Shown here piece by piece: positions 1 through 61,578 of a stretch of 64,000 nt of DNA. The DNA comes from Minisyncoccota bacterium (GTDB taxonomy: Bacteria > Patescibacteriota > Minisyncoccia > Phycocordibacterales > UBA918): contig JALHRC010000005.1 of assembly GCA_022841645.1 (NCBI GenBank), positions 2,804-66,803 of the forward strand. The letters run 5' to 3'. Positions within the stretch are counted from its first letter, which is position 1; each line of letters begins with the position of its first letter. Under the pieces are notes generated by a model. It was not told where the DNA came from. It did no database searches and worked only from the letters and a program-made list of their open reading frames with translations. A program made the translations under genes and the position numbers.

Positions 1-620
1 ACTGTTACCGTGCTTCCCAGCCGAGCAAATGCTTGAGCCATTTCAATTCCAATCGGACCACCACCAAGGACTAGTAGTCGGCGCGGTAGTACGTCCATGG
101 TAAAAATCGTTTCATTGGTATGGAGATTTTGCACCTGTTCAATTCCAGGTACCGTGAGGGTACGAGGACGCGAACCAGTGGCGAGCACGATGCGCTTGCT
201 GGTATAGACGGTATCCGCTACCTGCACCTGGTTTTTGCCTACAAACCTCGCTTCGCCTAATACCACCGTCATTCCCTGCGAGCGAAACCATGTTGCATTC
301 TCATGTTCTCGTATTGTCGACTGCACACCAGCAATGTACTCCCGCACTCGCTCCCACACCACCGCCCCGCCAACCGACAGCCCGTAGGCGGCCGCGCGCC
401 GCGCGGCCGCTACCTCACGCGCTATGTGGAGGAGGGCTTTGGAGGGGATACAGCCAAAGTTAAGACAATCACCCCCAATGGTCTCATCACGCTTATCGAT
501 AAGCAGCACCGAGAGTCCAATCCGGTTCATAAAGGCGGCTATGGTGAGTCCACCTGAACCAGCACCGATAACAATGAGGTCAAAGCTGGTCTTAGCGCTT
601 GTGACTTTCGTGGTGTCCAT
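1..620 (-). CDS. Pyridine nucleotide-disulfide oxidoreductase (dihydrolipoamide dehydrogenase / mercuric reductase-like), N-terminal 206 aa; the 3' end lies beyond the window
   Basis: The reverse-strand translation begins MDTTKVTSAKTSFDLIVIGAGSGG (FAD-binding GxGxxG) and contains the redox-active CLNFGCIPSK disulfide motif. A second Rossmann motif (VLGGGPIGIEMAQ) follows. The start codon sits at 618-620. Confidence 0.7.
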   Translation of the reverse strand, partial: MDTTKVTSAKTSFDLIVIGAGSGGLTIAAFMNRIGLSVLLIDKRDETIGGDCLNFGCIPSKALLHIAREVAAARRAAAYGLSVGGAVVWERVREYIAGVQSTIREHENATWFRSQGMTVVLGEARFVGKNQVQVADTVYTSKRIVLATGSRPRTLTVPGIEQVQNLHTNETIFTMDVLPRRLLVLGGGPIGIEMAQAFARLGSTVT

Positions 621-1269
621 AATGGCGTTGCAGATAGCGACCTAATAATACTACTCCACCCACGAGAACCAAGGCACCGACAATATGAAGCGGCTTTAAC
701 ATCGTGATAGCATCGCCAAAATAAACAAAGGCAAACGTACCAGGCACGATACCAAGCACCGTTGCGAATATATAGTCACGTGTCCGCACCGAAGTAAAAC
801 CAAGGGCATAATTGAGCGCACTAAACGGCACAATGGGAGTGAGGCGTAGAATCAGCACAGTCAAAAATCCCGAGCGAGTGAGGCGTGCATCATACAATGC
901 TAGCTTTTGGTGCCAGCGATTGGTTGCGGGGGCACGCTCTGTTTTATCGCCACGCCGAAATAGCCGAACGAGAAGAAATGAACCAGTAGCGCCAATACTC
1001 GCTCCCACCACCGTGGCCACCATACCAATAAGTGGCCCAAACAGCACACCACCAGTGAGGGTAAAAGCTACTCCGGGGAGAGCAAACATCACACCTCCTG
1101 CATACACAAAAACGTACACCAGAGGTGCATATACACCGTATCCGGCAACCAGTTCTCGTAGTGCCATTGGCGTGATGATTCCACTACGGTGTACGTAGAT
1201 CACAATGAAGACTGCTGCTACGATCACCACGATCGCTAGTAACGACCGCCACAAGACTGAAAGCATCAT
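592..1269 (-). CDS. DedA/TVP38 (SNARE-associated) family membrane protein
   Basis: The 225-aa product is polytopic and hydrophobic with DedA-like motifs (LVRLF..GDK..R, LRLTPIVPF..NYALG). It overlaps the upstream oxidoreductase start by 29 nt. Confidence 0.7.
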   Translation of the reverse strand: MMLSVLWRSLLAIVVIVAAVFIVIYVHRSGIITPMALRELVAGYGVYAPLVYVFVYAGGVMFALPGVAFTLTGGVLFGPLIGMVATVVGASIGATGSFLLVRLFRRGDKTERAPATNRWHQKLALYDARLTRSGFLTVLILRLTPIVPFSALNYALGFTSVRTRDYIFATVLGIVPGTFAFVYFGDAITMLKPLHIVGALVLVGGVVLLGRYLQRHYGHHESHKR

Positions 1270-1274
1270 AAGGT

Positions 1275-3257
1275 TTACTCAACCATGGACAGCCAGTGGG
1301 CGTAGCCAAGCGCCGACATCTCGGCCTTAGGAATAAAACGTAGTGCCGCACCATTCATGCAGTACCGTTTACCACCGCGGTCGATCGGCCCATCATCAAA
1401 GACGTGCCCAAGGTGCGAGTCGGCGAACCGTGACCGCACCTCAGTGCGCACCGAAAACAACTTCCGATCTTCGTGGTGCGTCACCACTTCATCACTTAGC
1501 GGTCGTACAAACGACGGCCACCCCGTACCCGAATCAAACTTATCGCGCGAGGAGAATAGCGGTTCGCCAGATATCATGTCAACGTACAAACCGGGTTCAT
1601 AGTGTTGGTCAAGCGCGCTGGTACCAGCACGCTCTGTAGCATCTTCGCGCATCACCCGAAAGGCCACCTCAGAAAGTAATGTTCGCAACTCTTCGTCGAC
1701 TGGTCGTATATACGTCTCCCATGAAGAAGGGGTAAATTGGTTACGAGTAGCTGAATCCATAGTGGTGTTTGTTGCCAGATTGTCCGAATAAGTAAATTTT
1801 TTAAGGTCACTTCCCCACGTTGATTCTATGAAGGCTGTTCGACCGGAAGCACTGCGATACAAACTATATCGTAGTGGATTCTTTAGAGCGTAGTCTTGGT
1901 GGTAGTCTTCGGCTGGGTAGAACGGCGGTCGCGCTACTACTAGCAGCGGAAGCGGCGCTGGAAAAATCCCACGAGCGTCAACGGCTGCGATCACCGCCAG
2001 TGCCGCTCTCTGTTCCTCCTTTGTTTGATAATAAATAGCTGGAGCATACTCACTGCCACGGTCTTTAAACGAACCATGAGCGTCAGTCGGGTCACCATGC
2101 TTAATAATATGTTCCACCAGATTCGCGTAGGATACGATTGACGGGTCATACACCACCTGCACGACTTCGCGGTGACCGCCGTCATCGTAGTTCTTGTAAT
2201 CTGGATTTTCGGTAGTACCGCCAGCATATCCAGAGACAACATCAATGACCCCCGTCACCTTCGCTAGATCGTGCTCGACGCACCAGAAACAGCCGTTGCC
2301 AAACAAGGCGTTGGCAGTTTTAGTTGGTTGTGGTGGTGCGGGTGGGGTTACTGGTTCTCGAAGTACTGCAACTATTTGACTACCACTAGTCATCATCTGG
2401 TCATCCACTTCTTTAGCATCAAGGGTTGTGCTGGTAGCCTCTGTCAAATCTGTAGTCGCTAACGTCACTCCACTCTCAGCACTCATTGGTTGAGGTAGCG
2501 GAAGCGGTGAGGGGACCGATTCGGCTGGTGCAAACTGACGCAGGAGTTCTTCTTCAAATTGGATAGTGGCTCCATAGCCACTATCAAGAACGAACGACTC
2601 AAACTGCTTGTCCCAGCCCATCACCACCGCCACTCCAACACACAGCAGGAGTACGCCAAGGCCCTGGCGCACTCGCGCAGTAGTGGTAAGCCGTTTTAAG
2701 AGTACGTTGACAAACTGCTGACCAAAGTAAGCAATCAGAAAGAGAACAAGGACCAATCCCAACACAAATCCTCCCAAATACCACAACCCCAGCGCAAGTG
2801 ATGCTGGTAATACGGTCGCAATAATAAAGAGATAGGTTGGACTACAGGTCGAGAACACCGGACCAAGTGCCACCCCCATCAGCACATCCCCGCGCCAGCT
2901 GTTAGCCTGGTAGCCGCCACCGACTGCCCGATTGCTTAGCCGTGCTATCCGGCCCACAAGCGGCACTCTACCCCACCACGTCGGTACCAGAAGCGACAAA
3001 CCAAGGAGCGCAAGCACGCCTCCGGAAAACCACGTCCAAACGCTTGGCGGAATGGTAATCAGTAGCGTCGTCGCTCTAAGAAGGAGCGTAAAGACAATCA
3101 CCGATGCAGCGAGCACGAGAATCACTACCACTGACCGCCGTGAGAGATGGCGCGCTCCTGGCTCACTTGCACCGATCACGACCGGCAACAGCGGCAAAAT
3201 ACAGGGGGCCAGGACCGTGAGTGCCCCAGCCAAAACGGAGATAAGAAAGAAGGACAT
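1275..3257 (-). CDS. msrAB: Tri-domain fusion: CcdA/DsbD-type thiol-disulfide transporter TM domain - MsrA - MsrB (membrane-bound peptide methionine sulfoxide reductase A/B)
   Basis: The N-terminal six-TM region carries the CcdA motifs LAPCILPLLP and FSTCSPTY. A Pro-rich linker follows. The MsrA motif GCFWCVEH and the MsrB motifs GTGWPSF, HLGHVFDDGP and RYCMNGAALRF complete the 660-aa product. Confidence 0.85.
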   Translation of the reverse strand: MSFFLISVLAGALTVLAPCILPLLPVVIGASEPGARHLSRRSVVVILVLAASVIVFTLLLRATTLLITIPPSVWTWFSGGVLALLGLSLLVPTWWGRVPLVGRIARLSNRAVGGGYQANSWRGDVLMGVALGPVFSTCSPTYLFIIATVLPASLALGLWYLGGFVLGLVLVLFLIAYFGQQFVNVLLKRLTTTARVRQGLGVLLLCVGVAVVMGWDKQFESFVLDSGYGATIQFEEELLRQFAPAESVPSPLPLPQPMSAESGVTLATTDLTEATSTTLDAKEVDDQMMTSGSQIVAVLREPVTPPAPPQPTKTANALFGNGCFWCVEHDLAKVTGVIDVVSGYAGGTTENPDYKNYDDGGHREVVQVVYDPSIVSYANLVEHIIKHGDPTDAHGSFKDRGSEYAPAIYYQTKEEQRAALAVIAAVDARGIFPAPLPLLVVARPPFYPAEDYHQDYALKNPLRYSLYRSASGRTAFIESTWGSDLKKFTYSDNLATNTTMDSATRNQFTPSSWETYIRPVDEELRTLLSEVAFRVMREDATERAGTSALDQHYEPGLYVDMISGEPLFSSRDKFDSGTGWPSFVRPLSDEVVTHHEDRKLFSVRTEVRSRFADSHLGHVFDDGPIDRGGKRYCMNGAALRFIPKAEMSALGYAHWLSMVE

Positions 3258-3264
3258 GAAATGA

Positions 3265-3906
3265 TCACTCTACCTGCGCTACGACACTCGCTAGCGTCGA
3301 GCCACCACTCCACTTTTTGATGAGTGTGCCGTCGGCGGACACCTGTACCAGGGTATGTTGGGTAGTCACTCCATACTTTTGTTTCAGTGCCGTGCTGGTA
3401 TCGTAGTCGACATTAAAAATAGTCAGCCCCGCTGGAATACTGGTCAATTGATTTTTAATGTCACCCTCCAGCGTACGACAGCTTGGACACCAGCTAGCGT
3501 AGAAAAACAATACCGCGTCGCCCGCCGTGGCTGCCGCTGCTACCGCAGCAGCAGAGTATGTGGTATAGCTACCTGTAGCAGCAGACGCTGGCATGTCCTT
3601 TTTCATGGTGTCGTCACCCATCATAGCTACACTTTTCGGTGTATCACTCATGTCATCTGCCATGGTGTTTGCAGAATTAGTAGATGACATCTCGGGTTTA
3701 GGAGGTGATATCGTCGTCGCGCCACTGTTCATTGCCGTTTCTTCATCCATCATCTCATCTGGTTTACCCTCCATCTCTGCTGCTCCAGTATCCGACACTT
3801 TCAACATCTCTGATGTAGCAACCGACGGTGCATTATTCGACTGACTTGCATACCACACGCCACCAAACAAGGCTACAACTACCACTCCAATTAAAAGATT
3901 AACCAT
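3265..3906 (-). CDS. Membrane-anchored thioredoxin-like protein (WCPSC active site) with a Met-rich linker
   Basis: It has an N-terminal TM helix and about 14 Met within an 80-aa acidic linker. The C-terminal thioredoxin fold carries FFYASWCPSCR. It lies immediately upstream of the CcdA-MsrAB fusion on the same strand. Confidence 0.8.
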   Translation of the reverse strand: MVNLLIGVVVVALFGGVWYASQSNNAPSVATSEMLKVSDTGAAEMEGKPDEMMDEETAMNSGATTISPPKPEMSSTNSANTMADDMSDTPKSVAMMGDDTMKKDMPASAATGSYTTYSAAAVAAAATAGDAVLFFYASWCPSCRTLEGDIKNQLTSIPAGLTIFNVDYDTSTALKQKYGVTTQHTLVQVSADGTLIKKWSGGSTLASVVAQVE

Positions 3907-4010
3907 AGTGCAAAAGTAGAGAAAGGTTTAAGGTCTTTACTAAACTGCTACAGTCAGTATAGCCGACTTTACATACATGTAAAGTCGGCTATACACAGTA
4001 TCCTCTACAT

Positions 4011-4379
4011 CTATTCAAGGTAGAGTCTTGAAATATGCTTGACGAGCACCATAGCAGCGAGGGCCACCGGAATCCACGGATCAATGGTGTGTGTGAGGGT
4101 CTGGAAAATAAGGGCACAGAGTAACACTGCCAATCCAGCCAGGTACGCCAGGCGTCCCGACTGCACCCGCAACTGCACTTCACGCTCATCGGCGGCTGTT
4201 TCAGAAAGAACGAAACTCGCCCAAACAACGAGCAGCACGGTCACACACACAAGAGCCACCAGCTCTCCCATCATTGGCATCCAAAACGGCACCAGATCGG
4301 CAATAACGATCAAGAAAAAACTAATTAAAATCGCAACGGTGGTGTGCATGATAGTTTTGTGCATGAAAATCTTATTCAT
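4011..4379 (-). CDS. Small polytopic membrane protein (DUF2178-like) co-transcribed with an XRE regulator
   Basis: The 122-aa product has 3-4 hydrophobic helices. Its start overlaps the stop of the XRE gene (ATGAATAA overlap). Confidence 0.55.
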   Translation of the reverse strand: MNKIFMHKTIMHTTVAILISFFLIVIADLVPFWMPMMGELVALVCVTVLLVVWASFVLSETAADEREVQLRVQSGRLAYLAGLAVLLCALIFQTLTHTIDPWIPVALAAMVLVKHISRLYLE

Positions 4380-4620
4380 ACGTCAGGGTAAATAAATCTT
4401 CTACTGCCACCTCAAAATAACGCGCGAGAGTAAGCGCAAGTAGCACCGAGGGCGTGTAATTACCCTTTTCGATAGAAATGATGGTTTGCCGCGTTACGCC
4501 CACAGCAATCGCCAACTCTTCCTGCGTTAGGCAGCGCTCGGTACGAAACTGATTAACACAATTAGTAACTTTATAATGCACACTCATCGACAGCAGCATA
4601 GCAAACTGCATCACAATCAC
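4372..4620 (-). CDS. XRE-family helix-turn-helix transcriptional regulator (an alternative start at 4587 gives 71 aa)
   Basis: It carries the Cro/C1-type HTH signature LTQEELAIAVGVTRQTIISIEKG. Confidence 0.75.
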   Translation of the reverse strand: MIVMQFAMLLSMSVHYKVTNCVNQFRTERCLTQEELAIAVGVTRQTIISIEKGNYTPSVLLALTLARYFEVAVEDLFTLTYE

Positions 4621-12020: not shown

Positions 12021-13298
12021 TTACCACACCAGTGCTCCAGGATCGAGAATCAGAAACGCTCCCAGCGCCAGCATGAGAATGCCTCCAATGAGAAGTGAGT
12101 AGTTGGCGTACTGCCCTCCCACCGCTTGGAGGCGACTATAGCCCCAGATCGCGAGACCAAACACAATCACGTCATCGAACATGTAGCCCAGGGTGTACAT
12201 CAGGATGTAGAACTGGCGGTCGAGGAAGGAGAGCATATTCATCTCGAGAATTTTTGTATAAGCCTGCGGGATACCAATCGAGCACGCAAACTCGATCACG
12301 TTTACTGAAAAGGCTATCGCGATAATTGAAATAATAGAAACAATCGTAATCGGCTGGTTAGCAATCGCTTTAAATTTGGCAATCACCTTCCCCTGGGTCT
12401 CAAGGTCGGTCACGTCACAAATAAGCGCGGCATCGCGATTTTTATACCAACGCCAGAGGAAAAATGAACCGCCGCCGACCGCGAGTGCACCGACGAGCGG
12501 CGTTACGATCGCGTCCAGTGCTACCCAGTCCCAGGTCTTGTACCAGACATTGAGGATAAGGTTGTACATGATACCCTCGGCGAGCATAAAGAGGCCAGCG
12601 AGGAACACCATCTTGCGCCGACTACCGGCCTGCGAAAGGAGCACACAGAAGGTGACCAGCACCCACATCGCACACGGGTTAAAACCGTCGATTACCCCCA
12701 GGAGTACCGAAAGCGAGAACAGTGAAAACGTTTGCAAATCAACAATGCCTACGAATGGCAGATCAAACACAAATGATGCGCTGTCGGCACTACACGAAAT
12801 ATCGGTACACCCCGTGCCCGAAAGGCCCGACTGCACCGGCGCACGCTCAAGGTGATCTTCAATTGTCCGAATGTCCCCACTCTGCGCCGCCACGAACGCT
12901 TCGCGCAGTGCCTTTCCTGTCGTTTCGGGGCCATTAAAACCCACCACTACCCGCTCCCCTACCACAGTAATAGGCGTCACCTTGGTAAGGTCATGCTTTT
13001 TTACCAACTCACCAAAGAGACGCGCGGCTTCGTCATCTTCGATAACATTGAGGTAGACGTACGGCAGTCCCGTGCTTTTAAGCCAGGCAAACTGCTCTTG
13101 GCAGTAGCCACAACTATCGCGGCCAAACATGATAAGGGGTACCGCCTCGCCCTGCGTTATTTCAGCCGCTTCTGCCACTACTGGTACGGCGGCCGGTGCG
13201 CTACCAAAAAGCGCTGGCCCATACCACCACAAGGCGAGCACCATCCCCACCACCATCCAGCCACCCCACCACAGTTCCCGCGCACTAAATGACATCAT
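12021..13298 (-). CDS. Glutaredoxin/thioredoxin-fold domain (CGYC) fused to a CcdA/DsbD-family thiol-disulfide transporter
   Basis: An N-terminal signal anchor is followed by SCGYCQ (glutaredoxin-like) and then a polytopic domain with FNPCAMW and a second Cys-containing TM segment. Confidence 0.8.
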   Translation of the reverse strand: MMSFSARELWWGGWMVVGMVLALWWYGPALFGSAPAAVPVVAEAAEITQGEAVPLIMFGRDSCGYCQEQFAWLKSTGLPYVYLNVIEDDEAARLFGELVKKHDLTKVTPITVVGERVVVGFNGPETTGKALREAFVAAQSGDIRTIEDHLERAPVQSGLSGTGCTDISCSADSASFVFDLPFVGIVDLQTFSLFSLSVLLGVIDGFNPCAMWVLVTFCVLLSQAGSRRKMVFLAGLFMLAEGIMYNLILNVWYKTWDWVALDAIVTPLVGALAVGGGSFFLWRWYKNRDAALICDVTDLETQGKVIAKFKAIANQPITIVSIISIIAIAFSVNVIEFACSIGIPQAYTKILEMNMLSFLDRQFYILMYTLGYMFDDVIVFGLAIWGYSRLQAVGGQYANYSLLIGGILMLALGAFLILDPGALVW

Positions 13299-13315
13299 AC
13301 CGGTACTATAACAAA

Positions 13316-13915
13316 CTACACCTGGCCAAGAAAATCGCCATACCCCTCTGCCTCCATGTCTGCCTTAGGTATAAAGCGCAGTGCTGCCCCATTCATACAG
13401 TACCGTTTGCCTCCTCGTTCTTTTGGACCATCTTTAAAAACATGGCCGAGATGATTGTCAGCAATTACCGACCGCACTTCGGTACGCAGCTGCCAAAAGA
13501 GCGAACGATCATCGTGCTCGGCTACTACCCCTTCAGCAATTGGCTTCACAAAAGACGGCCAGCCAGTGCCGGAATCAAATTTATCTTTGGAAGAAAAGAG
13601 GGGTTCTCCCGAAAGCACATCAACATATATTCCTGGTCCATACTCCTTATCAAGCGGACTGCTTCCAGCGCGTTCAGTACCTTCGGCCTGCGTTACTTTA
13701 TAGGTGAGCGGATCAAGCGTCTGCCGCAAAACTTCGGGCGCAGGTTTACTGTACATATGCCAACTATTCATAGTGGTAGTAGGTGTCGTTGCTAGATTGG
13801 TAGTAGAAGCCGTTGCCACTATTTCGGCGATATTTTCTTGGTAGACGAGATAGGCACCGGCACCCACACCAAAGATCGCGGCTGCTGCAAGTGCCACTTT
13901 AGTACTCGGTGCCAT
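13316..13915 (-). CDS. msrB: Membrane-anchored peptide methionine sulfoxide reductase MsrB
   Basis: It has an N-terminal TM helix and the SelR motifs GTGWPSF, HLGHVFKDGP and RYCMNGAALRF. It lies 17 nt upstream of the Grx-CcdA gene on the same strand. Confidence 0.85.
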   Translation of the reverse strand: MAPSTKVALAAAAIFGVGAGAYLVYQENIAEIVATASTTNLATTPTTTMNSWHMYSKPAPEVLRQTLDPLTYKVTQAEGTERAGSSPLDKEYGPGIYVDVLSGEPLFSSKDKFDSGTGWPSFVKPIAEGVVAEHDDRSLFWQLRTEVRSVIADNHLGHVFKDGPKERGGKRYCMNGAALRFIPKADMEAEGYGDFLGQV

Positions 13916-55936: not shown

Positions 55937-56061
55937 AGTCTTCCGCTAGTGCGGAAGAAGGGTCGTTGTGAGTACATGCGGAGCTTGCACGAACAGACCC
56001 TAGGAGGAATCGCGGACGAACGCCCATAGAAATCAAAGCGTTCCAATTAAAATCTATATTA

Positions 56062-56098
56062 CGTCGGTGGTGGAGTGGTCAATCACAACAGACTGTAA
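56062..56098 (+). repeat. 37-nt exact duplicate of the 5' half of tRNA-Tyr (through the anticodon), followed by a hairpin-rich 150-nt insert
   Basis: It is identical to 56252..56288. Serial perfect hairpins follow downstream (atgtgtcttc/gaagacacat, gtcgc/gcgac, aaatct/agattt). Confidence 0.65.
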
Positions 56099-56250
56099 GA
56101 CTGACGCTTCGCGCACCAGGCAGTCTTTCTGGCAGATGTGTCTTCCACCGAAGACACATTAAAAAGTCGCTATAGCGACACACCAGTAAATCTTACAGAT
56201 TTCCAGTCTAGATAGATTACGAAAAACATTTGAGTTACAATTGCATATCT

Positions 56251-56333
56251 GCGTCGGTGGTGGAGTGGTCAATCACAACAGACTGTAAATCTGTCGGCTT
56301 CGGCCTACGAAGGTTCGAATCCTTCCCGGCGCA
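56251..56333 (+). tRNA. tRNA-Tyr (anticodon GUA)
   Basis: It has acceptor GCGUCGG/CCGGCGC with discriminator A, anticodon loop CUGUAAA, a long variable arm and TpsiC TTCGAAT. Two terminator hairpins follow. Confidence 0.85.
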
Positions 56334-56455
56334 CAGGTCGTGAAAAACTTGACGTTTTTCCTCAGAAAGCTCTTGTATATCAAGGGCTTTTTTGGTGCCG
56401 AACCTACCTAGACTATCGCCAAGCTTCTTATAAACATTTTGAAAGCCGATTAGTT

Positions 56456-56854
56456 ATGTTTTGCACTAACTGCGGAAACAAAATCGACATAAATGAAAAG
56501 TTTTGCACAAATTGTGGACTTGAAGGTTTGGGCATTAACAACAAAAACCCACAAACTGCTCGAGAAACAGCTATCAGCGTAAAGAAAGATGAAAAATTGT
56601 ATCACAGATTAGGTGTGGTAATTTATGTGATAGCCCACCTTCCATTACTTGTTATTGTTCCTGTGGTTTGGTCAGAAAATGCAAGGTACTACAGTAGCTA
56701 CACTAAAACATACTCCGGCTCTGATTTTGAAGCGTTTTTGTATTCAGTCTTAACTATTATTATTTGCCTCTTAGTGCTTCGTCTGATTAAAATGGCGACT
56801 AAATATATTGTGATAGGTATAAAGCCCAAGATGCGAGATTTGATATTTTTCTAA
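56456..56854 (+). CDS. Zinc-ribbon domain membrane protein (132 aa)
   Basis: It has an N-terminal CTNCG-x10-CTNCG zinc ribbon and two TM helices. Confidence 0.5.
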   Translation: MFCTNCGNKIDINEKFCTNCGLEGLGINNKNPQTARETAISVKKDEKLYHRLGVVIYVIAHLPLLVIVPVVWSENARYYSSYTKTYSGSDFEAFLYSVLTIIICLLVLRLIKMATKYIVIGIKPKMRDLIFF

Positions 56855-56884
56855 AAAGAACCAACCAAGTACAACAACACTAGG

Positions 56885-57214
56885 ATGGCAACTTTTAAAG
56901 TCACACAGGAAGCAAAAGAACTTTTTGACAAGCTTGTCGCGGAAGGGATTTTTGCTGAACTAGAATACTGGGACGGGTACAAACACGTCGATATACACAT
57001 CCCATTAGCAAAACTTTACATTGAAGTCGATGGAGCCCAACACTTCACAAATCCCAACCAAATAGCCAGTGATTTTCTCAGAGACCACTACTCAGACAAT
57101 AGTGGCTACGACACCTTCAGAATTCCAAACCAAATAGTTAGAGATAAAATGAATACTGTAGTAAAAGCTATTTTAAAGATTGTTTCTGAACGATCTCACC
57201 ATCAGATTTTGTAA
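56885..57214 (+). CDS. DUF559 endonuclease-domain protein (Vsr/restriction-endonuclease-like fold)
   Basis: It has the VDIHIP..KLYIEVDGAQHF motif characteristic of DUF559. Confidence 0.55.
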   Translation: MATFKVTQEAKELFDKLVAEGIFAELEYWDGYKHVDIHIPLAKLYIEVDGAQHFTNPNQIASDFLRDHYSDNSGYDTFRIPNQIVRDKMNTVVKAILKIVSERSHHQIL

Positions 57215-57334
57215 AGGCAAGATACAAACCAGAAAGACTTTCTAAATCCAATTGAGCTTGAGAGTCAGAAATCGCAACCTTATACTGTCTAAACATGTAA
57301 TCTTGATATTTTGTTACTAATTTTACAGTAAACC

Positions 57335-58315
57335 TCATACAATTTTGGTGTCTGGTGACTCAAAAAGATCAGGATGTGTCAAAACTTTAGTCCCAATTTT
57401 TGAACATATTACTTTTTTTTGCGCGCAAGCTACACGCAAAGAAAGTATTGGCTTACCTGTGATTTTTGACACTTCTGATAAAGACAATAATTTTTTTATA
57501 TCATTAAATCTATTACAAATAACCACATCAAGTGCTATTGCTAGACTCTTATTAATAATCTCTTCTAGTTGCAAGGGTGGCTTTACAAACGGATCTTTGA
57601 AATTGTTTTTGATAATCGTTTGAACTATTGGATCGGCATGTTCGAGCGCATCTATATATTCTTTTCTGTCTTTTTCGCTACCCTTTATAGCAATGTTTGG
57701 ATAACCGTGCGCAACTAAAATAAAATTCATCAAGATTCTACCGACACGCCCATTACCATCAGGAAAAGGGTGAATTTGCTCAAACATATCGTGGACTATT
57801 GCAAGCTTTCTCACCAAATAATCCGTAGGCGTAGGCGTATTAGCAACCTCAATAAGCCCTTCAATATGACGCTCAATTTCAAAAGGTGATGAAGTTTTGA
57901 CCTTCGCACCTGTAATCTCTATGTCTCCCTTTCGCCATTCTCCAGGTGTGTAAGAAAAATTTGGGTCTCCTCTAAACATCAAAGAGTGAATTTGACGAAT
58001 AATTGCTTTAGACAATTTAAACTCTTTTGTCTGGAATTGCTGAAAAGCTAATTCGTACGCCGCAAATGCGGCATCAAAATAACCAAGTACTCGATACTCA
58101 GTTTTTGAGTATTTTGGATTATCAATAATATCAATAATATCTGTTCGACTGACAAAATACCCTTCTATCATTAATGAGTTTCTTGTATCCTCTTTAAGAA
58201 GATCCATCCACTCTTTATTTCGAACAGAAACACCACTCAACCCTCCCACATGAAAAAACCACTCAAATCTAAGATTTGCAGTTGAATTTGGTATGATTCT
58301 TCGTTTTATTGTCAT
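57335..58315 (-). CDS. Fic family protein (AMPylator-type motif HPFPDGNGRVGR)
   Basis: It has the canonical Fic motif HPFx[DE]GNGRxxR at HPFPDGNGRVGRIL. An extremely AT-rich multi-TATAAT upstream region spans 58316-58520. Confidence 0.75.
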   Translation of the reverse strand: MTIKRRIIPNSTANLRFEWFFHVGGLSGVSVRNKEWMDLLKEDTRNSLMIEGYFVSRTDIIDIIDNPKYSKTEYRVLGYFDAAFAAYELAFQQFQTKEFKLSKAIIRQIHSLMFRGDPNFSYTPGEWRKGDIEITGAKVKTSSPFEIERHIEGLIEVANTPTPTDYLVRKLAIVHDMFEQIHPFPDGNGRVGRILMNFILVAHGYPNIAIKGSEKDRKEYIDALEHADPIVQTIIKNNFKDPFVKPPLQLEEIINKSLAIALDVVICNRFNDIKKLLSLSEVSKITGKPILSLRVACAQKKVICSKIGTKVLTHPDLFESPDTKIV

Positions 58316-58537
58316 GTAAATTTTCTATTTACTAAGCAAGATCTAATACTTTTATTTACAAAGCATTATTTTAAGCCCTCTTTACTCAATGTTGATATAA
58401 TATCATATAATACTAAACTCGCAATAATCTATTATAATATAGTTTATATGGCTTAAAATATAAGTATATTACAAAAGTATAATAATCTCTTATTTTATCA
58501 TAATTATACATTTATATTTGAATATTACCCCACACAA

Positions 58538-58561
58538 AAGTGTCGAACCAACTCCAGCTCG
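58538..58561 (+). repeat. 24-nt direct repeat R1 (aagtgtcgaaccaactccagctcg) at the 3' flank of the rhuM-doc gene
   Basis: It is 23/24 identical to R2 at 59581..59604. Confidence 0.6.
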
Positions 58562-58573
58562 GCGCACAGAAAA

Positions 58574-59554
58574 CTACCGCAACATTTGTGTTACAAGCGC
58601 TACCATCTGCTCTTTCTTCTTTGGATCACTTTCGGCTATCAAAAGCGTAAGGGCAGTGAGTGCTGCTGGATTAATATTCTTTGCTCCTTTCACTCCCACC
58701 TTACGTAAGAACCACACAAAGGCAAACGCTCCTGAGCGCTTGTTGCCATCAGAAAATGGATGGTTCTTTACCATAAAGTAGAGCAGGTGTGCCGCTTTTT
58801 CCTCGACAGTTGGGTACACCGACTTACCACCAAATGACTGCATGACGTTACCGACGATACCTTCAATATTTCCTTCTCGCCGCTCGCTAGCAAACAAATC
58901 AGTGGCCTCCCCTTTCTTTATAAGTTCGCGCTTTAGTTCACTGATTACCAAGAGTAAATCACCTCCAACAAGCGCGACCTTCTTTTTAGTTACCCCCTTT
59001 AGTTCAAGGGTCTCCTTATCATACGCATCAAGGGAAACCCAGGTACCAGCAAATTCTTTTATTAGCTCAAGGACGGCTTTGGGGTCAAGGGTAACCTGAT
59101 CAGGTAACAAAGCTTGTACATCCGACACCGCTTTCATAAAAGCATCGTAATTTTGTGCAACTCGTTTTCGGTTTACGGTATACCCTTTGGTGACATGTTC
59201 ACGCAGAGTCTTAGTAGCCCACTGTCGAAAAGTAGTGGCTTTTTTGCTATTTACTCGATAACCAACAGAAAGAATCATATCGAGGCTGTAGTGATTTACT
59301 TCGCGCTCAATCTGACGCTTTCCTTCAAGCTGAAGTATCCGGAATTTCCGGATAGTTGCTTTTTCGACCAACTCTTCCGTCTTATAGATATTCTTAATGT
59401 GCTCGTTAATAGTTCGCACATCTACATCAAAAGCTAGGGCGATCTGTACTTGTGTTGCCCACACTGTTTCCATTTCCGAATCGCCCCGCAACTCCAAAGC
59501 ACCAGACTTAGTCTGGTAAATTACCATTTTTTGTTCCGACTTTTTCTTAGCCAT
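58574..59554 (-). CDS. RhuM-family N-terminal domain fused to a Doc-type Fic domain (HPFSDGNKR)
   Basis: It has a RhuM-like N-terminus (KMVIYQTKSGALELRGD..VWATQ..IA) and a Doc-type motif HPFSDGNKRSGAFAF. Confidence 0.7.
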   Translation of the reverse strand: MAKKKSEQKMVIYQTKSGALELRGDSEMETVWATQVQIALAFDVDVRTINEHIKNIYKTEELVEKATIRKFRILQLEGKRQIEREVNHYSLDMILSVGYRVNSKKATTFRQWATKTLREHVTKGYTVNRKRVAQNYDAFMKAVSDVQALLPDQVTLDPKAVLELIKEFAGTWVSLDAYDKETLELKGVTKKKVALVGGDLLLVISELKRELIKKGEATDLFASERREGNIEGIVGNVMQSFGGKSVYPTVEEKAAHLLYFMVKNHPFSDGNKRSGAFAFVWFLRKVGVKGAKNINPAALTALTLLIAESDPKKKEQMVALVTQMLR

Positions 59555-59580
59555 ATTAAGTGCATTTTAACATGAAGCAG

Positions 59581-59604
59581 AAGTGTCGAACCATCTCCAG
59601 CTCG
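59581..59604 (+). repeat. 24-nt direct repeat R2 (aagtgtcgaaccatctccagctcg) at the 5' flank of the rhuM-doc gene
   Basis: It is 23/24 identical to R1 and lies 26 nt upstream of the start codon. Confidence 0.6.
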
Positions 59605-59667
59605 TCACCACTTACGATCACTGCAAGCTCTACCAATCATACCTAAAATCATTGCTATACTGGACCT

Positions 59668-61578
59668 ATGTCAGTTTCTGCCGCGCAAAAACACAATCGT
59701 ATCCAGCTACTCACTGCCGTTCTGATGATAGTTATGCTCAGCAGCTATTTTGCCTACACTTCTCTTAAGAATAATCTCCCTCCCCCACCACCGGAGGCTA
59801 TGTATAGAAGTAAAGACGTGCCTACCATGGAGCGTGTCACGGATCTTTTGTCGTACATGTCACTTGAAGAGAAGATCGGACAGATGGCTCTCGTAGAGAA
59901 AAATAGTCTGCGCGCGGTTGAAGATATCTCAGCTTATGGCCTCGGTGCGCTCTTAAGTGGCTTTGGTGGGAGACCTGAAGATAATAGTCCCGCGGGATGG
60001 AAGACGATGGTTGAAACCTTTACTTCGGCAGCACGCTCGTCCCGCCTCGGCATACCCATCTTGTATGGCATCGACGCCATACATGGCCACAGTAATATTC
60101 CCGGTGCCACTATCTTTCCACACTTTATTGGACTTGGAGCGAGCGGTGACGCAACCCTCGTCGAAAACGTTGCGCGCGCCACCGCCAATGAACTTCTCGC
60201 GACCGGCGTACGCTGGAGCTACTCCCCCACCTACGACATGCCCGAAGATATTCGCTGGGGCCGCGTCTACGAAACTTTTTCTGACGACCCAGTGCTCGTA
60301 AGTAAGCTCGGAAGCGCCTATATCCGTGGCTTACAGAAAGCTCAAGGTCAACGTGCGGGAACTTCTTCTCAAGTAATGGTGCTCGCAACACCCAAACACT
60401 ACCTTGGTGCCGGTGGGATGCTGTGGGATACGTCGAGTAACGAGAACTTTAAAATTGATCAGGGTCTAACGCCGGAAGACGAGGCCAAATTGCGTGAGCA
60501 GTATCTGCCGCCATTTAAGAAAGCAATTGAAACCGGAGCGCTCAGTGTGATGGCGGGACTCAATAGCTGGGGTGATACAAAAATTGCCGCTTCCTCATAC
60601 CTCATTACCACCGTACTCAAAGCAGAACTTGGATTTAAAGGTTTTGTCGTCTCTGACTGGTACGGGGTGTACGAGATTCCGGGAAGTGATTACGAGGCTG
60701 CGGTCACCGCGATTAATGCGGGCGTCGATGTGGTCATGCTGCCGTTTGATTACCAGGACTTTGTGAGAAATGTGCGCCGGGCAGTACGACGAGGCGACAT
60801 ACCGGAAGAAAGAATTAATGACGCGGTACAGCGCATTTTAACTGCCAAATTTGAGTTGGGATTATTTGACAATGACACCACAAGAGACATCTCAGAGATT
60901 GGCTCACCGGAGCACCGTGCACTTGCCCGCGAAGCAGTCGCGAAGTCGCTGGTACTTTTAAAAAATGACGCCCGCCTCCTCCCGCTTCGCAGGACTACCG
61001 CTACGATCCGGGTCGCAGGAAGCGCTGCCGACAACATCGGGCGACAAACGGGCGCGTGGACAGTCGAGTGGCAAGGCATCGACGGCAACTGGTTGCCTGG
61101 CGCGACGTCAATTCTCGCCGGCATCAAGGAGGCAGCTCCACCTGGAACGACCGTGGAATTTGATAGCGGCGCATACTTTCCAGAAAATTCACCGAAGGCC
61201 GCTGTCGGTATCGCCGTCGTAGGCGAGGCTCCGTACGCCGAAGGCTGGGGCGATACTCCAATCCCCTCTTTAACTGAGGAAGACCGGGCGACGATCGAAC
61301 GCCTCAGAGCGGCAAGCGAGGTAGTGGTCGTGGTCTTGGTGACCGGCCGACCACTCTTTATAACCAACGAGATAAAAGATTGGGACGCAGTTGTCGTGGC
61401 CTGGCTTCCTGGCAGCGAGGGCGCTGGCGTGGCCGATGTGCTGTTTGGCAAAAGGCCCTTTACCGGAAAACTTCCCCTTCCCTGGCCGAGAACAACCGAG
61501 CAGCTCCCGATCACGGGCAGTGCCACAGCTGACGGCACTAATCCCCTATTTCTCCGTTACTATGGCCTAGGTATCTAA
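59668..61578 (+). CDS. Glycoside hydrolase family 3 (beta-glucosidase / beta-N-acetylhexosaminidase-like)
   Basis: It has an N-terminal signal anchor and GH3 N- and C-domain motifs (KHYLGAG, GFKGFVVSDW with the catalytic Asp, C-terminal alpha/beta sandwich). Confidence 0.85.
   Translation: MSVSAAQKHNRIQLLTAVLMIVMLSSYFAYTSLKNNLPPPPPEAMYRSKDVPTMERVTDLLSYMSLEEKIGQMALVEKNSLRAVEDISAYGLGALLSGFGGRPEDNSPAGWKTMVETFTSAARSSRLGIPILYGIDAIHGHSNIPGATIFPHFIGLGASGDATLVENVARATANELLATGVRWSYSPTYDMPEDIRWGRVYETFSDDPVLVSKLGSAYIRGLQKAQGQRAGTSSQVMVLATPKHYLGAGGMLWDTSSNENFKIDQGLTPEDEAKLREQYLPPFKKAIETGALSVMAGLNSWGDTKIAASSYLITTVLKAELGFKGFVVSDWYGVYEIPGSDYEAAVTAINAGVDVVMLPFDYQDFVRNVRRAVRRGDIPEERINDAVQRILTAKFELGLFDNDTTRDISEIGSPEHRALAREAVAKSLVLLKNDARLLPLRRTTATIRVAGSAADNIGRQTGAWTVEWQGIDGNWLPGATSILAGIKEAAPPGTTVEFDSGAYFPENSPKAAVGIAVVGEAPYAEGWGDTPIPSLTEEDRATIERLRAASEVVVVVLVTGRPLFITNEIKDWDAVVVAWLPGSEGAGVADVLFGKRPFTGKLPLPWPRTTEQLPITGSATADGTNPLFLRYYGLGI

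Follow-up and report, generated by a model that had tools for sequence, protein, structure and literature searches.

A 64,000-nucleotide (nt) stretch of DNA from a Minisyncoccota bacterium (contig JALHRC010000005.1), referred to here as the window, carries on its minus strand a small operon in which a membrane domain of the CcdA/DsbD type and the methionine sulfoxide reductases MsrA and MsrB are encoded as one polypeptide of 660 amino acids (aa), directly downstream of the gene for a membrane-anchored thioredoxin (Trx) with a methionine-rich tether. We consider it fairly probable that this operon provides an extracytoplasmic methionine-sulfoxide repair and oxidant-scavenging system in this bacterium, which belongs to the Patescibacteria, also known as the candidate phyla radiation (CPR). 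The proposed mechanism rests on domain content, conserved cysteines, predicted topology, gene linkage, tether statistics and the conservation of a promoter and palindrome. From these features we infer the route of the electrons and the proteins that exchange them, the role of the tether as a sink and the identity of the regulator. The gene set and its parts are given below in coordinates of the window.

1275..3257, minus strand: fusion gene, 660-aa open reading frame (ORF), CcdA-linker-MsrA-MsrB
2523..3257, minus strand: CcdA/DsbD-type transmembrane domain, predicted electron conduit, fusion residues 1-245
2310..2522, minus strand: Pro/Thr/Ala-rich linker from CcdA to MsrA, residues 246-316, length-variable, disordered
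1866..2309, minus strand: MsrA domain, residues 317-464, GCFWC active site
1329..1676, minus strand: MsrB (SelR) domain, residues 528-643, 1-Cys type
3265..3906, minus strand: thioredoxin gene, 213-aa ORF, anchored by a transmembrane (TM) segment, WCPSC
3838-3906, minus strand: TM anchor of the thioredoxin, N-in, residues 1-23
3562-3837, minus strand: acidic Met-rich tether of the thioredoxin, residues 24-115, 12 Met
3268-3561, minus strand: thioredoxin domain, residues 116-213, classical Trx fold

The thioredoxin gene lies upstream of the fusion gene and is separated from it by 7 nt. Within the fusion protein a six-helix CcdA/DsbD-type domain is followed by a disordered Pro/Thr linker, MsrA and MsrB. 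That these parts form a single polypeptide had been proposed in an earlier reading of the DNA made without database searches (the sequence-only reading), and was borne out by the ORF itself together with Pfam, profile and fold evidence.

Hydropathy analysis of the N-terminal 245 residues yielded six hydrophobic segments. Two cysteines of this domain, Cys19 in TM1 (APCILPLLP) and Cys138 in TM4 (FSTCSPTY), were invariant among 24 homologues, and a juxtamembrane segment, DK..E..(I/V)LDSGYGATI, is conserved after TM6. The CcdA domain was not recognised in single-sequence scans against Pfam and NCBIfam, and profile and fold evidence was required. A profile built from a 20-sequence alignment of domain homologues matched CcdA of Thermus thermophilus (5VKV, a nuclear magnetic resonance structure) over residues 5-224 with an E-value of 1.5e-7, and in this match both cysteines align with the two cysteines of 5VKV. 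Searched individually at E <= 0.01, 16 of the 20 homologues matched DsbD_TM (PF02683) and 19 matched DsbD_2 (PF13386); sibling fusions on the same CcdA subtype score above the Pfam cutoff, and stand-alone relatives of 246 aa carry the CcdA label in their sources. When an AlphaFold model of the domain, itself of only moderate confidence (predicted local distance difference test, pLDDT, 66.6), was compared with the PDB by Foldseek, 5VKV was retrieved with a probability of 1.00 and a TM-score of 0.53-0.57, while the next match had a probability of 0.16. Assignment of the domain to the CcdA/DsbD family holds at the level of the family, by profile and predicted fold, and not on the single sequence. 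By analogy with this family, the domain would conduct electrons from a cytoplasmic thioredoxin to an extracytoplasmic partner of the thioredoxin fold.

The linker between CcdA and MsrA is unconserved and shows large alignment gaps. AlphaFold pLDDT falls below 50 at fusion residues 219-312, and residues 217-316 comprise 12% Pro and 12% Thr, in agreement with the Pro-rich linker noticed from the sequence alone, which is predicted to be disordered.

Both reductase domains were recognised with high scores. MsrA matched Pfam PMSR (PF01625) with an E-value of 6e-46 and 156.9 bits against a cutoff of 23.7, and TIGR00401 with 130.7 bits against a cutoff of 108.1; its GCFWC active site (Cys323, Cys326) is invariant in the homologue alignment of 24 sequences. 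In MsrA enzymes of the CxxC type the second cysteine recycles the first, and GCFWC fits this type. MsrB matched Pfam SelR (PF01641) with an E-value of 7e-42 and 142.4 bits, and TIGR00357 with 176.5 bits against a cutoff of 113. Its catalytic Cys633, located in RYCMNG, is invariant and is the sole cysteine of the domain. The position of the recycling cysteine is taken by Thr578 (GTGWPSF), which is likewise invariant, and zinc-binding CxxC pairs were absent from the cysteine inventory of the MsrB domain. Judged by these residues, MsrB is of the 1-Cys, zinc-free subtype and lacks the characters of the 2-Cys, zinc-containing class. A 1-Cys MsrB implies that an external thiol must resolve the Cys633 sulfenate directly.

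For the MsrA and MsrB domains to act outside the cytoplasm, as the sequence-only reading had supposed, the C-terminus of the CcdA domain has to be extracytoplasmic, and four independent indicators agree on this orientation. Lys and Arg residues of the CcdA domain number 2, 5 and 4 in loops 1, 3 and 5, and 0 each in the N-terminus and in loops 2 and 4. In the closest reference genome, L001, CcdA stops after the conserved juxtamembrane segment, and a separate MsrAB ORF carries an N-terminal TM signal-anchor of its own. In sibling CPR proteins the C-terminal position taken here by MsrA-MsrB is occupied by a DipZ-type Redoxin+Thioredoxin_10 module. Finally, the thioredoxin anchors are N-in/C-out by charge bias in 92% of 73 homologues, the net charge being +1.2 on the N-terminal side of the anchor and -1.1 on the C-terminal side. 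The CcdA domain is predicted to be N-out/C-out, which would place MsrA-MsrB outside the membrane, and the extracytoplasmic location claimed earlier is upheld to this extent. A literature search returned no explicit statement on the orientation of CcdA termini. In DsbD, the first Cys-bearing helix (TM1) comes after a periplasmic domain.

The thioredoxin encoded directly upstream has its WCPSC motif at residues 139-143 (Cys140, Cys143) and matched Pfam Thioredoxin (PF00085) with an E-value of 1.3e-10 and 41.7 bits against a cutoff of 23.5; its nearest solved relatives are classical thioredoxins and the a-domains of protein disulfide isomerases. Its linkage to ccdA was assessed in a survey of related loci, for which two peptide motifs of the CcdA domain were matched to 465 species-representative genomes and 80 loci were fetched. 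A gene for a TM-anchored thioredoxin with a CPSC or CPTC site is located directly upstream of ccdA in 78 of the 80 loci, whatever is fused to CcdA, and the gap between the two genes is 0-10 nt in most of these. By this linkage, and by analogy with the pneumococcal pathway from CcdA through Etrx to MsrAB2, Trx is the expected relay partner.

In the mechanism that we propose, electrons from a cytoplasmic thiol reductant would cross the membrane via Cys19 and Cys138 of the CcdA domain and would be passed to the CPSC site (Cys140/Cys143) of the anchored thioredoxin. The thioredoxin would in turn re-reduce the Cys323-Cys326 disulfide of MsrA and the Cys633 sulfenate of the 1-Cys MsrB, both of which would reside outside the membrane on a flexible linker at the C-terminus of CcdA. 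With such tethering, only nanometres would separate the conduit, the shuttle and the terminal reductases. The acidic tether of ~90 residues would most likely function like MrpX of Azospira suillum, a sacrificial hypochlorite-scavenging peptide in which Met accounts for 20% of the residues and charged amino acids for 44% (Melnyk et al. 2015, PMC4436054). Its exposed methionines would be sacrificially oxidised by hypochlorous acid (HOCl) or peroxide and regenerated by the neighbouring MsrA and MsrB. The cell surface would thereby gain a catalytic oxidant sink driven by NAD(P)H. Transcription would start at a conserved TTTACA/TATACT promoter, with a repressor of the XRE family on a palindrome that overlaps the -35 element and a protein with four TM segments (4-TM) as a possible sensor.

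The order of electron transfer might differ from this scheme in one respect. It is unlikely, but conceivable, that CcdA reduces the fused MsrA (CFWC) and MsrB itself, in cis, and that Trx serves other envelope clients or acts mainly as a scavenger. Such a route would resemble that of DsbD, whose membrane domain reduces the C-terminal domain fused to it, and the covalent attachment of a client to the conduit has parallels in DsbD and DipZ; the retention of the trx-ccdA pair with unrelated fusion partners, or with none, implies that Trx is not specific to Msr. However, all characterised CcdA/DsbD membrane domains donate to partners of the thioredoxin fold (PMC8238504 for the DsbD family, PMC3914529 for the pneumococcal pathway), whereas MsrA and MsrB have other folds. 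Direct reduction would also have to operate across 70-100 disordered linker residues of variable length, and in the split relative L001 the order trx-ccdA-msrAB is retained. We therefore prefer the relay through Trx.

Upstream of the thioredoxin gene lies a putative regulatory unit with the following parts.

3956..3994, minus strand: putative promoter with overlapping palindromic operator, palindrome at 3957-3994
4011..4379, minus strand: gene for a 4-TM membrane protein of ~120 aa, conserved, no named family
4372..4620, minus strand: gene for a small XRE-family helix-turn-helix (HTH) regulator, Pfam HTH_3 E 3e-10

The palindrome, which is located between trx and the upstream genes, consists of perfect 18-nt arms, GTATAGCCGACTTTACAT-GT-ATGTAAAGTCGGCTATAC; its motif is unique in the 64-kb window, with 0 occurrences expected by chance. 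The best sigma-70-like match on the minus strand comprises a -35 element TTTACA (3978-3983) and a -10 element TATACT (3956-3961) at a spacing of 16 nt. In 33-36 related loci a palindrome with the core ATGTAAAG/CTTTACAT precedes trx by 30-65 nt, and in 34 of 34 cases a -10-like hexamer lies 16-17 nt beyond the TTTACA within the palindrome. This layout suggests an operator overlapping a promoter. The XRE protein is probably the repressor that binds the palindrome. In L019 and L068 a second palindrome copy precedes the XRE gene itself by 40-60 nt, which suggests autoregulation. The 4-TM gene is found upstream of trx in 31 related loci. Its product contains the invariant motifs FWMP..M, DER, GR and DPW and could not be matched to any family in Pfam or the PDB; it is a candidate for the signal sensor that acts with the XRE regulator. 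Among loci with sufficient upstream flank, the XRE gene, the 4-TM gene and the palindrome occur together in 24 MsrAB-fused loci and in none of the 8 loci in which CcdA is fused to DUF3179. The unit recurs across CPR ahead of operons for Msr and Met-rich Trx. A sole role of the palindrome as a plain intrinsic terminator was rejected: the copy in the window has no T-run, the conserved core carries the -35 element, and copies are found before XRE genes.

Two further observations concern this region in related genomes. In the clade of the window (L012, L024, L036, and L001 by near match) the two half-sites come in the opposite order to that in most loci. Eight loci, of which L054 is typical, are devoid of the XRE/palindrome unit and carry, ~10 nt ahead of trx, a gene for an ArsR-family HTH protein that may be an alternative regulator; the one that was checked matched Pfam HTH_5 with an E-value of 4e-9.

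The tether of the thioredoxin had been described from the sequence as an acidic, Met-rich linker next to a membrane anchor, and this description stands: the TM anchor is present, the tether contains 16 Asp and Glu against 6 Lys, and Met makes up 13% of its residues, compared with 1.8% in the fusion protein. The count of about 14 Met in 80 residues was too high, as the richest 80-residue stretch holds 12. In the locus survey, the Met fraction of the tether had a median of 15% (range 0-28%) in MsrAB-fused loci and of 2.4% (range 0-4%) in DUF3179-fused loci, the tethers of both groups being of comparable length. Median Met fractions of 0.18 and 0.03 were obtained for loci with and without the palindrome, respectively. 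The Mann-Whitney p-values of the locus survey (1e-5 and 5e-5) are phylogenetically uncorrected and do not constitute independent evidence. With CcdA sequences clustered at 65% identity, Met-rich tethers are spread over 6 separate clusters. When 41 tethers were pooled, they contained 15.7% Met, 14% Lys, 13% Glu and 12% Asp (39% Lys, Glu and Asp together), 0.1% His and no Cys. The spacing of Met residues in these 41 tethers was compared with the expectation from shuffled sequences and is strongly non-random. Adjacent pairs (MM, i+1; 88 observed, 56 expected) and the spacings i+5 (55 against 24), i+6 (55 against 19) and i+7 (29 against 16) are enriched, and i+2 (1 observed, 45 expected) and i+3 (6 against 37) are depleted.

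Slightly less likely again than reduction in cis is that the tether is a functionless low-complexity spacer whose richness in Met arose as a side effect when repeats expanded in a single lineage, and that the fusion merely anchors MsrAB. The tethers are indeed unalignable and variable in length, they resemble expanded short repeats such as (K/E)AMME(K/Q)K, and most of the Met-rich cases belong to one subclade. However, their composition is kept despite complete turnover of the sequence, and neither the non-random spacing of Met nor its recurrence in six CcdA clusters would be expected of a mere spacer. The co-variation of Met content with a dedicated regulator and operator, and the low Met content of DUF3179-fused tethers of similar length, likewise speak against it.

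The sequence-only reading had also raised the possibility that the tether is a Cu(I)-binding region of the MxxM type. In this case, it would bind or buffer Cu(I) or another soft metal in the manner of the Mets motifs of Ctr1, CopA and PcoC, and the operon would be primarily a copper-stress device. A high density of Met in an exported acidic segment is compatible with this role, and Met-rich periplasmic copper proteins of E. coli, e.g. CusF, are clients of Msr (PMC9302797). In the tether of the window, however, MxxM and MxM are both absent, and the near-absence of i+2 and i+3 spacings from the 41 tethers argues against MxM/MxxM Cu(I) sites. Recurrent MxM/MxxM, with or without His, which defines Mets-motif Cu(I) sites, is found neither in this tether nor in the family, where His and Cys are essentially missing. 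Furthermore, no copper-handling genes were found among the recurrent neighbour-gene clusters of related loci, and Met-richness tracks Msr-linked loci and the XRE/palindrome unit. We regard a copper function as improbable, and the MxxM-type interpretation is not supported. The data favour an oxidant sink over Cu(I) binding, so that the sacrificial sink for reactive oxygen species, which had been suggested alongside it, is the better supported of the two; the sink itself is something we infer.

Several observations weigh against the proposed repair and scavenging system. The single window sequence scored 17.9 bits with DsbD_2 (PF13386), below the cutoff of 24.9, so that of the domain searches suggested by the sequence-only reading those with PMSR and SelR were confirmed while the one with DsbD_2 needed a family profile. 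The second Cys motif of the CcdA domain is deviant, with TCSP where PCxxP is canonical. An AlphaFold model of the full-length fusion (pLDDT 67; predicted template modelling score, pTM, 0.38) is uninformative on the docking of MsrAB or Trx to CcdA. With regard to the tether, its association with Msr is partly phylogenetic, with the single subclade mentioned above supplying most cases; ~6 MsrAB-fused loci have Met-poor tethers, and some loci with stand-alone CcdA have Met-rich ones. In one clade the palindrome is flanked by A and T runs and could partly be a terminator hairpin of the upstream genes. No cytoplasmic electron donor was identified within the window.

A more far-reaching version of the repair and scavenging system is tentative and, in our view, rather doubtful. 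The operon could be a self-contained, membrane-tethered and catalytic antioxidant machine in which Trx is both reductant and substrate: HOCl or peroxide would oxidise its Met-rich tail, the MsrA/MsrB tethered to CcdA would repair the tail, and the CPSC site of this same Trx would re-reduce the two enzymes with electrons from CcdA. The XRE and 4-TM proteins would form the switch that turns expression on, the methionine cluster of FWMP..M sensing the oxidant. If true, the machine would represent a thiol-based equivalent of MrpX/MsrPQ, and Patescibacteria might possess in it a major defence of the envelope against oxidants.

The distribution of the fusion was analysed by a homologue search in a database of 5.8 billion proteins, of which the best 120 matches were inspected. 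Nearly all of these are ~600 aa long, most align over the full length of the query, and most are annotated with PMSR, SelR and DsbD domains; more than 100 homologue clusters cover 100% of the length of the fusion protein. Every organism name given among the 120 matches belongs to the Patescibacteria. In the locus survey, CcdA-MsrA-MsrB was the most frequent arrangement (43 of 80 loci), followed by CcdA alone (18), CcdA-DUF3179 (9), CcdA-MsrA (6) and CcdA fused to a DipZ-type Trx (4). CcdA-MsrAB is a standard architecture of CPR/Patescibacteria, one among several modular C-terminal fusions on a single CcdA scaffold, and the rarity that the sequence-only reading had implied does not hold. Fission also occurs, as in L001 and in P0207, a database protein of 80% identity. 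Because the CcdA domain often receives no Pfam call, the source annotations inspected name the fusions only 'MsrA' or 'MsrB'. Literature searches returned no description of a CcdA-MsrAB polypeptide and nothing relevant on Msr systems of CPR bacteria. The MsrAB-fusion table of a 2026 review lists Trx-MsrAB, TM-MsrAB2 and plain MsrAB with a separate CcdA, and contains no CcdA-MsrAB protein, in line with the earlier statement that CcdA is a protein of its own in the systems characterised so far (pneumococcal CcdA/Etrx/MsrAB2, neisserial Trx-MsrAB). The CcdA-MsrAB fusion is widespread in CPR and apparently unstudied.

That a frameshift or an assembly error joined separate ccdA and msrAB genes into the 660-aa ORF, as the stand-alone CcdA of L001 (66% identity) and of P0207 might suggest, is effectively excluded, since six contigs carry the identical 660-aa product, of which the three contigs examined derive from the sequencing runs SRR28154521, SRR28154523 and SRR28154524, since the homologue clusters match it at full length and more than half of the reference loci are fused, and since the TM anchor owned by the separate MsrAB of L001 indicates a true fission and not a broken gene. 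No frameshift or stop separates the CcdA and MsrA parts.

Other arrangements were noted around the same modules. DUF3179 is fused to the same CcdA subtype in L020, L029, L043, L050, L055, L056, L065, L078 and L080, and the domain in these fusions is well defined (Pfam E 3e-69) with a conserved FCPLCGSA motif. This fusion suggests that DUF3179 is an extracytoplasmic client of electrons supplied by CcdA. P0024, P0027, P0030 and P0031 are close relatives of the MsrA-MsrB part (66-68% identity over the Msr part) whose Pfam annotation contains DM13 (PF10517) and lists no DsbD/CcdA domain, which hints at DM13 as an alternative electron-input module. Many MsrAB-fused loci (L007, L013, L014, L019, L027, L046 and others) have small stand-alone msrB and msrA genes directly downstream of the fusion. 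Their products are probably cytoplasmic, which would make the operon a combined inside-and-outside methionine-repair island.

In the window, the operon continues past the fusion gene with two further genes on the same strand.

592..1269, minus strand: DedA/VTT-family membrane protein gene, Pfam VTT_dom E 1e-29
1..620, minus strand: 5' part of a gene for a class-I flavoprotein disulfide oxidoreductase, overlapping the DedA gene and extending past the window edge

The DedA/VTT gene starts 5 nt past the stop of the fusion gene. It was rejected as a conserved part of the module, being clade-specific and present in only ~6 of the 80 related loci. The flavoprotein has 478 aa and a CLNFGC redox motif, and its full gene is present on locus L081 (L081:4989-7584 together with DedA). 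It matched NCBIfam NF004991 with 403 bits, below the cutoff of 620, and its other matches, among them lipoamide dehydrogenase, MerA (hypothiocyanous acid reductase, HOSCN-reductase) and, more distantly, RclA, are all below cutoff as well. The flavoprotein is a possible source of cytoplasmic reductant. Beyond it, just past the window edge, lies a convergent gene for a cytoplasmic-type MsrA of 169 aa.

The window contains a second extracytoplasmic Msr locus (module 2; 12021-13915, minus strand). It encodes a TM-anchored 1-Cys MsrB (13316-13915, minus strand), which is 63% identical to the fused MsrB domain, and a protein of 425 aa (12021-13298, minus strand) that comprises a TM anchor, a glutaredoxin-like domain with CGYC and a polytopic membrane domain with FNPCAMW. 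The Glutaredoxin match of the latter is below threshold (Pfam E 1e-3). The 425-aa protein is a member of a large and well-conserved family of CPR proteins that are annotated as 'glutaredoxin family protein', sometimes as 'glutaredoxin/CcdA' at JGI, and may be a second transmembrane reductant conduit. Elsewhere, the region 56000-60000 has a GC content of 0.38-0.41, compared with ~0.52 in the remainder of the window, and holds two adjacent ORFs of 326 aa (57335-58315 and 58574-59554, both minus strand). This region may be foreign or an island.

Among known systems, PilB of Neisseria (Trx-MsrA-MsrB) has the same order of extracytoplasmic MsrA and MsrB and is ultimately fed by a conduit of the DsbD family. 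Its model NF010625 was the best NCBIfam match of the MsrAB part, with 295 bits against a cutoff of 522 and over model positions 203-520 only. In PilB it is the thioredoxin and not the conduit that is fused, and the protein of the window, having no Trx domain, is not of the PilB type; furthermore, the MsrB of PilB has the recycling Cys that is missing here. DsbD and DipZ likewise carry a periplasmic client or partner covalently on the C-terminus of the conduit, and sister CPR lineages have DipZ-type fusions built on this CcdA subtype. However, DsbD and DipZ are fused to a relay of the thioredoxin fold, whereas here the terminal enzyme MsrA-MsrB is attached, and the conduit has six TM helices rather than eight and no N-terminal immunoglobulin-like domain.

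The closest functional parallel is offered by S. pneumoniae, in which the surface path from CcdA1/2 through Etrx1/2 to SpMsrAB2 was shown experimentally, and similar systems are present in S. gordonii, F. nucleatum and H. influenzae (PMC3914529). The same three functions are combined in the pneumococcal system, in which reducing power passes via CcdA to a surface thioredoxin that recycles extracytoplasmic MsrA-MsrB, and there too the genes are clustered and the envelope has a single membrane. In contrast to the single polypeptide described here, the pneumococcal CcdA and MsrAB are separate proteins, and the pneumococcal thioredoxin is a lipoprotein of the TlpA/ResA type instead of a classical Trx fold on a TM anchor. 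The 1-Cys MsrB, the Met-rich Trx tether and the apparent XRE/4-TM regulation also set the operon of the window apart. The tether, which is predicted from the anchor topology to be exported, recalls MrpX of the MrpX and YedY (MsrP) system, an exported, Met-rich and charged segment that is encoded together with an extracytoplasmic Msr under a dedicated stress regulator. This likeness is one of composition in a low-complexity region. MrpX exists as a free, soluble peptide, and a molybdoenzyme that is fed from the quinone pool recycles it, whereas the segment described here is part of a thioredoxin and would be repaired by thiol-based MsrA/MsrB via CcdA.

Functionally, the operon can by analogy be regarded as a pneumococcal-type CcdA-Trx-MsrAB pathway supplemented with an MrpX-like element. 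The fusion itself will not astonish a specialist, but a Met-rich Trx together with a dedicated regulator makes a coherent and experimentally attractive system. As a compact set of four to five genes that can be expressed heterologously, it would allow tests of how CcdA chooses its partners and of whether protein-borne Met can serve as a catalytic oxidant sink, and it also bears on the survival of ultra-small episymbiotic bacteria, with their minimal genomes, when oxidants act on the cell surface. So far, repair via CcdA, Trx and MsrAB has been known from a handful of pathogens and always as separate proteins; a huge and mostly uncultured lineage routinely fuses the conduit to the terminal enzymes, and the same lineage provides the shuttle thioredoxin with an apparently MrpX-like methionine tether and the operon with what appears to be a dedicated, conserved promoter-operator.

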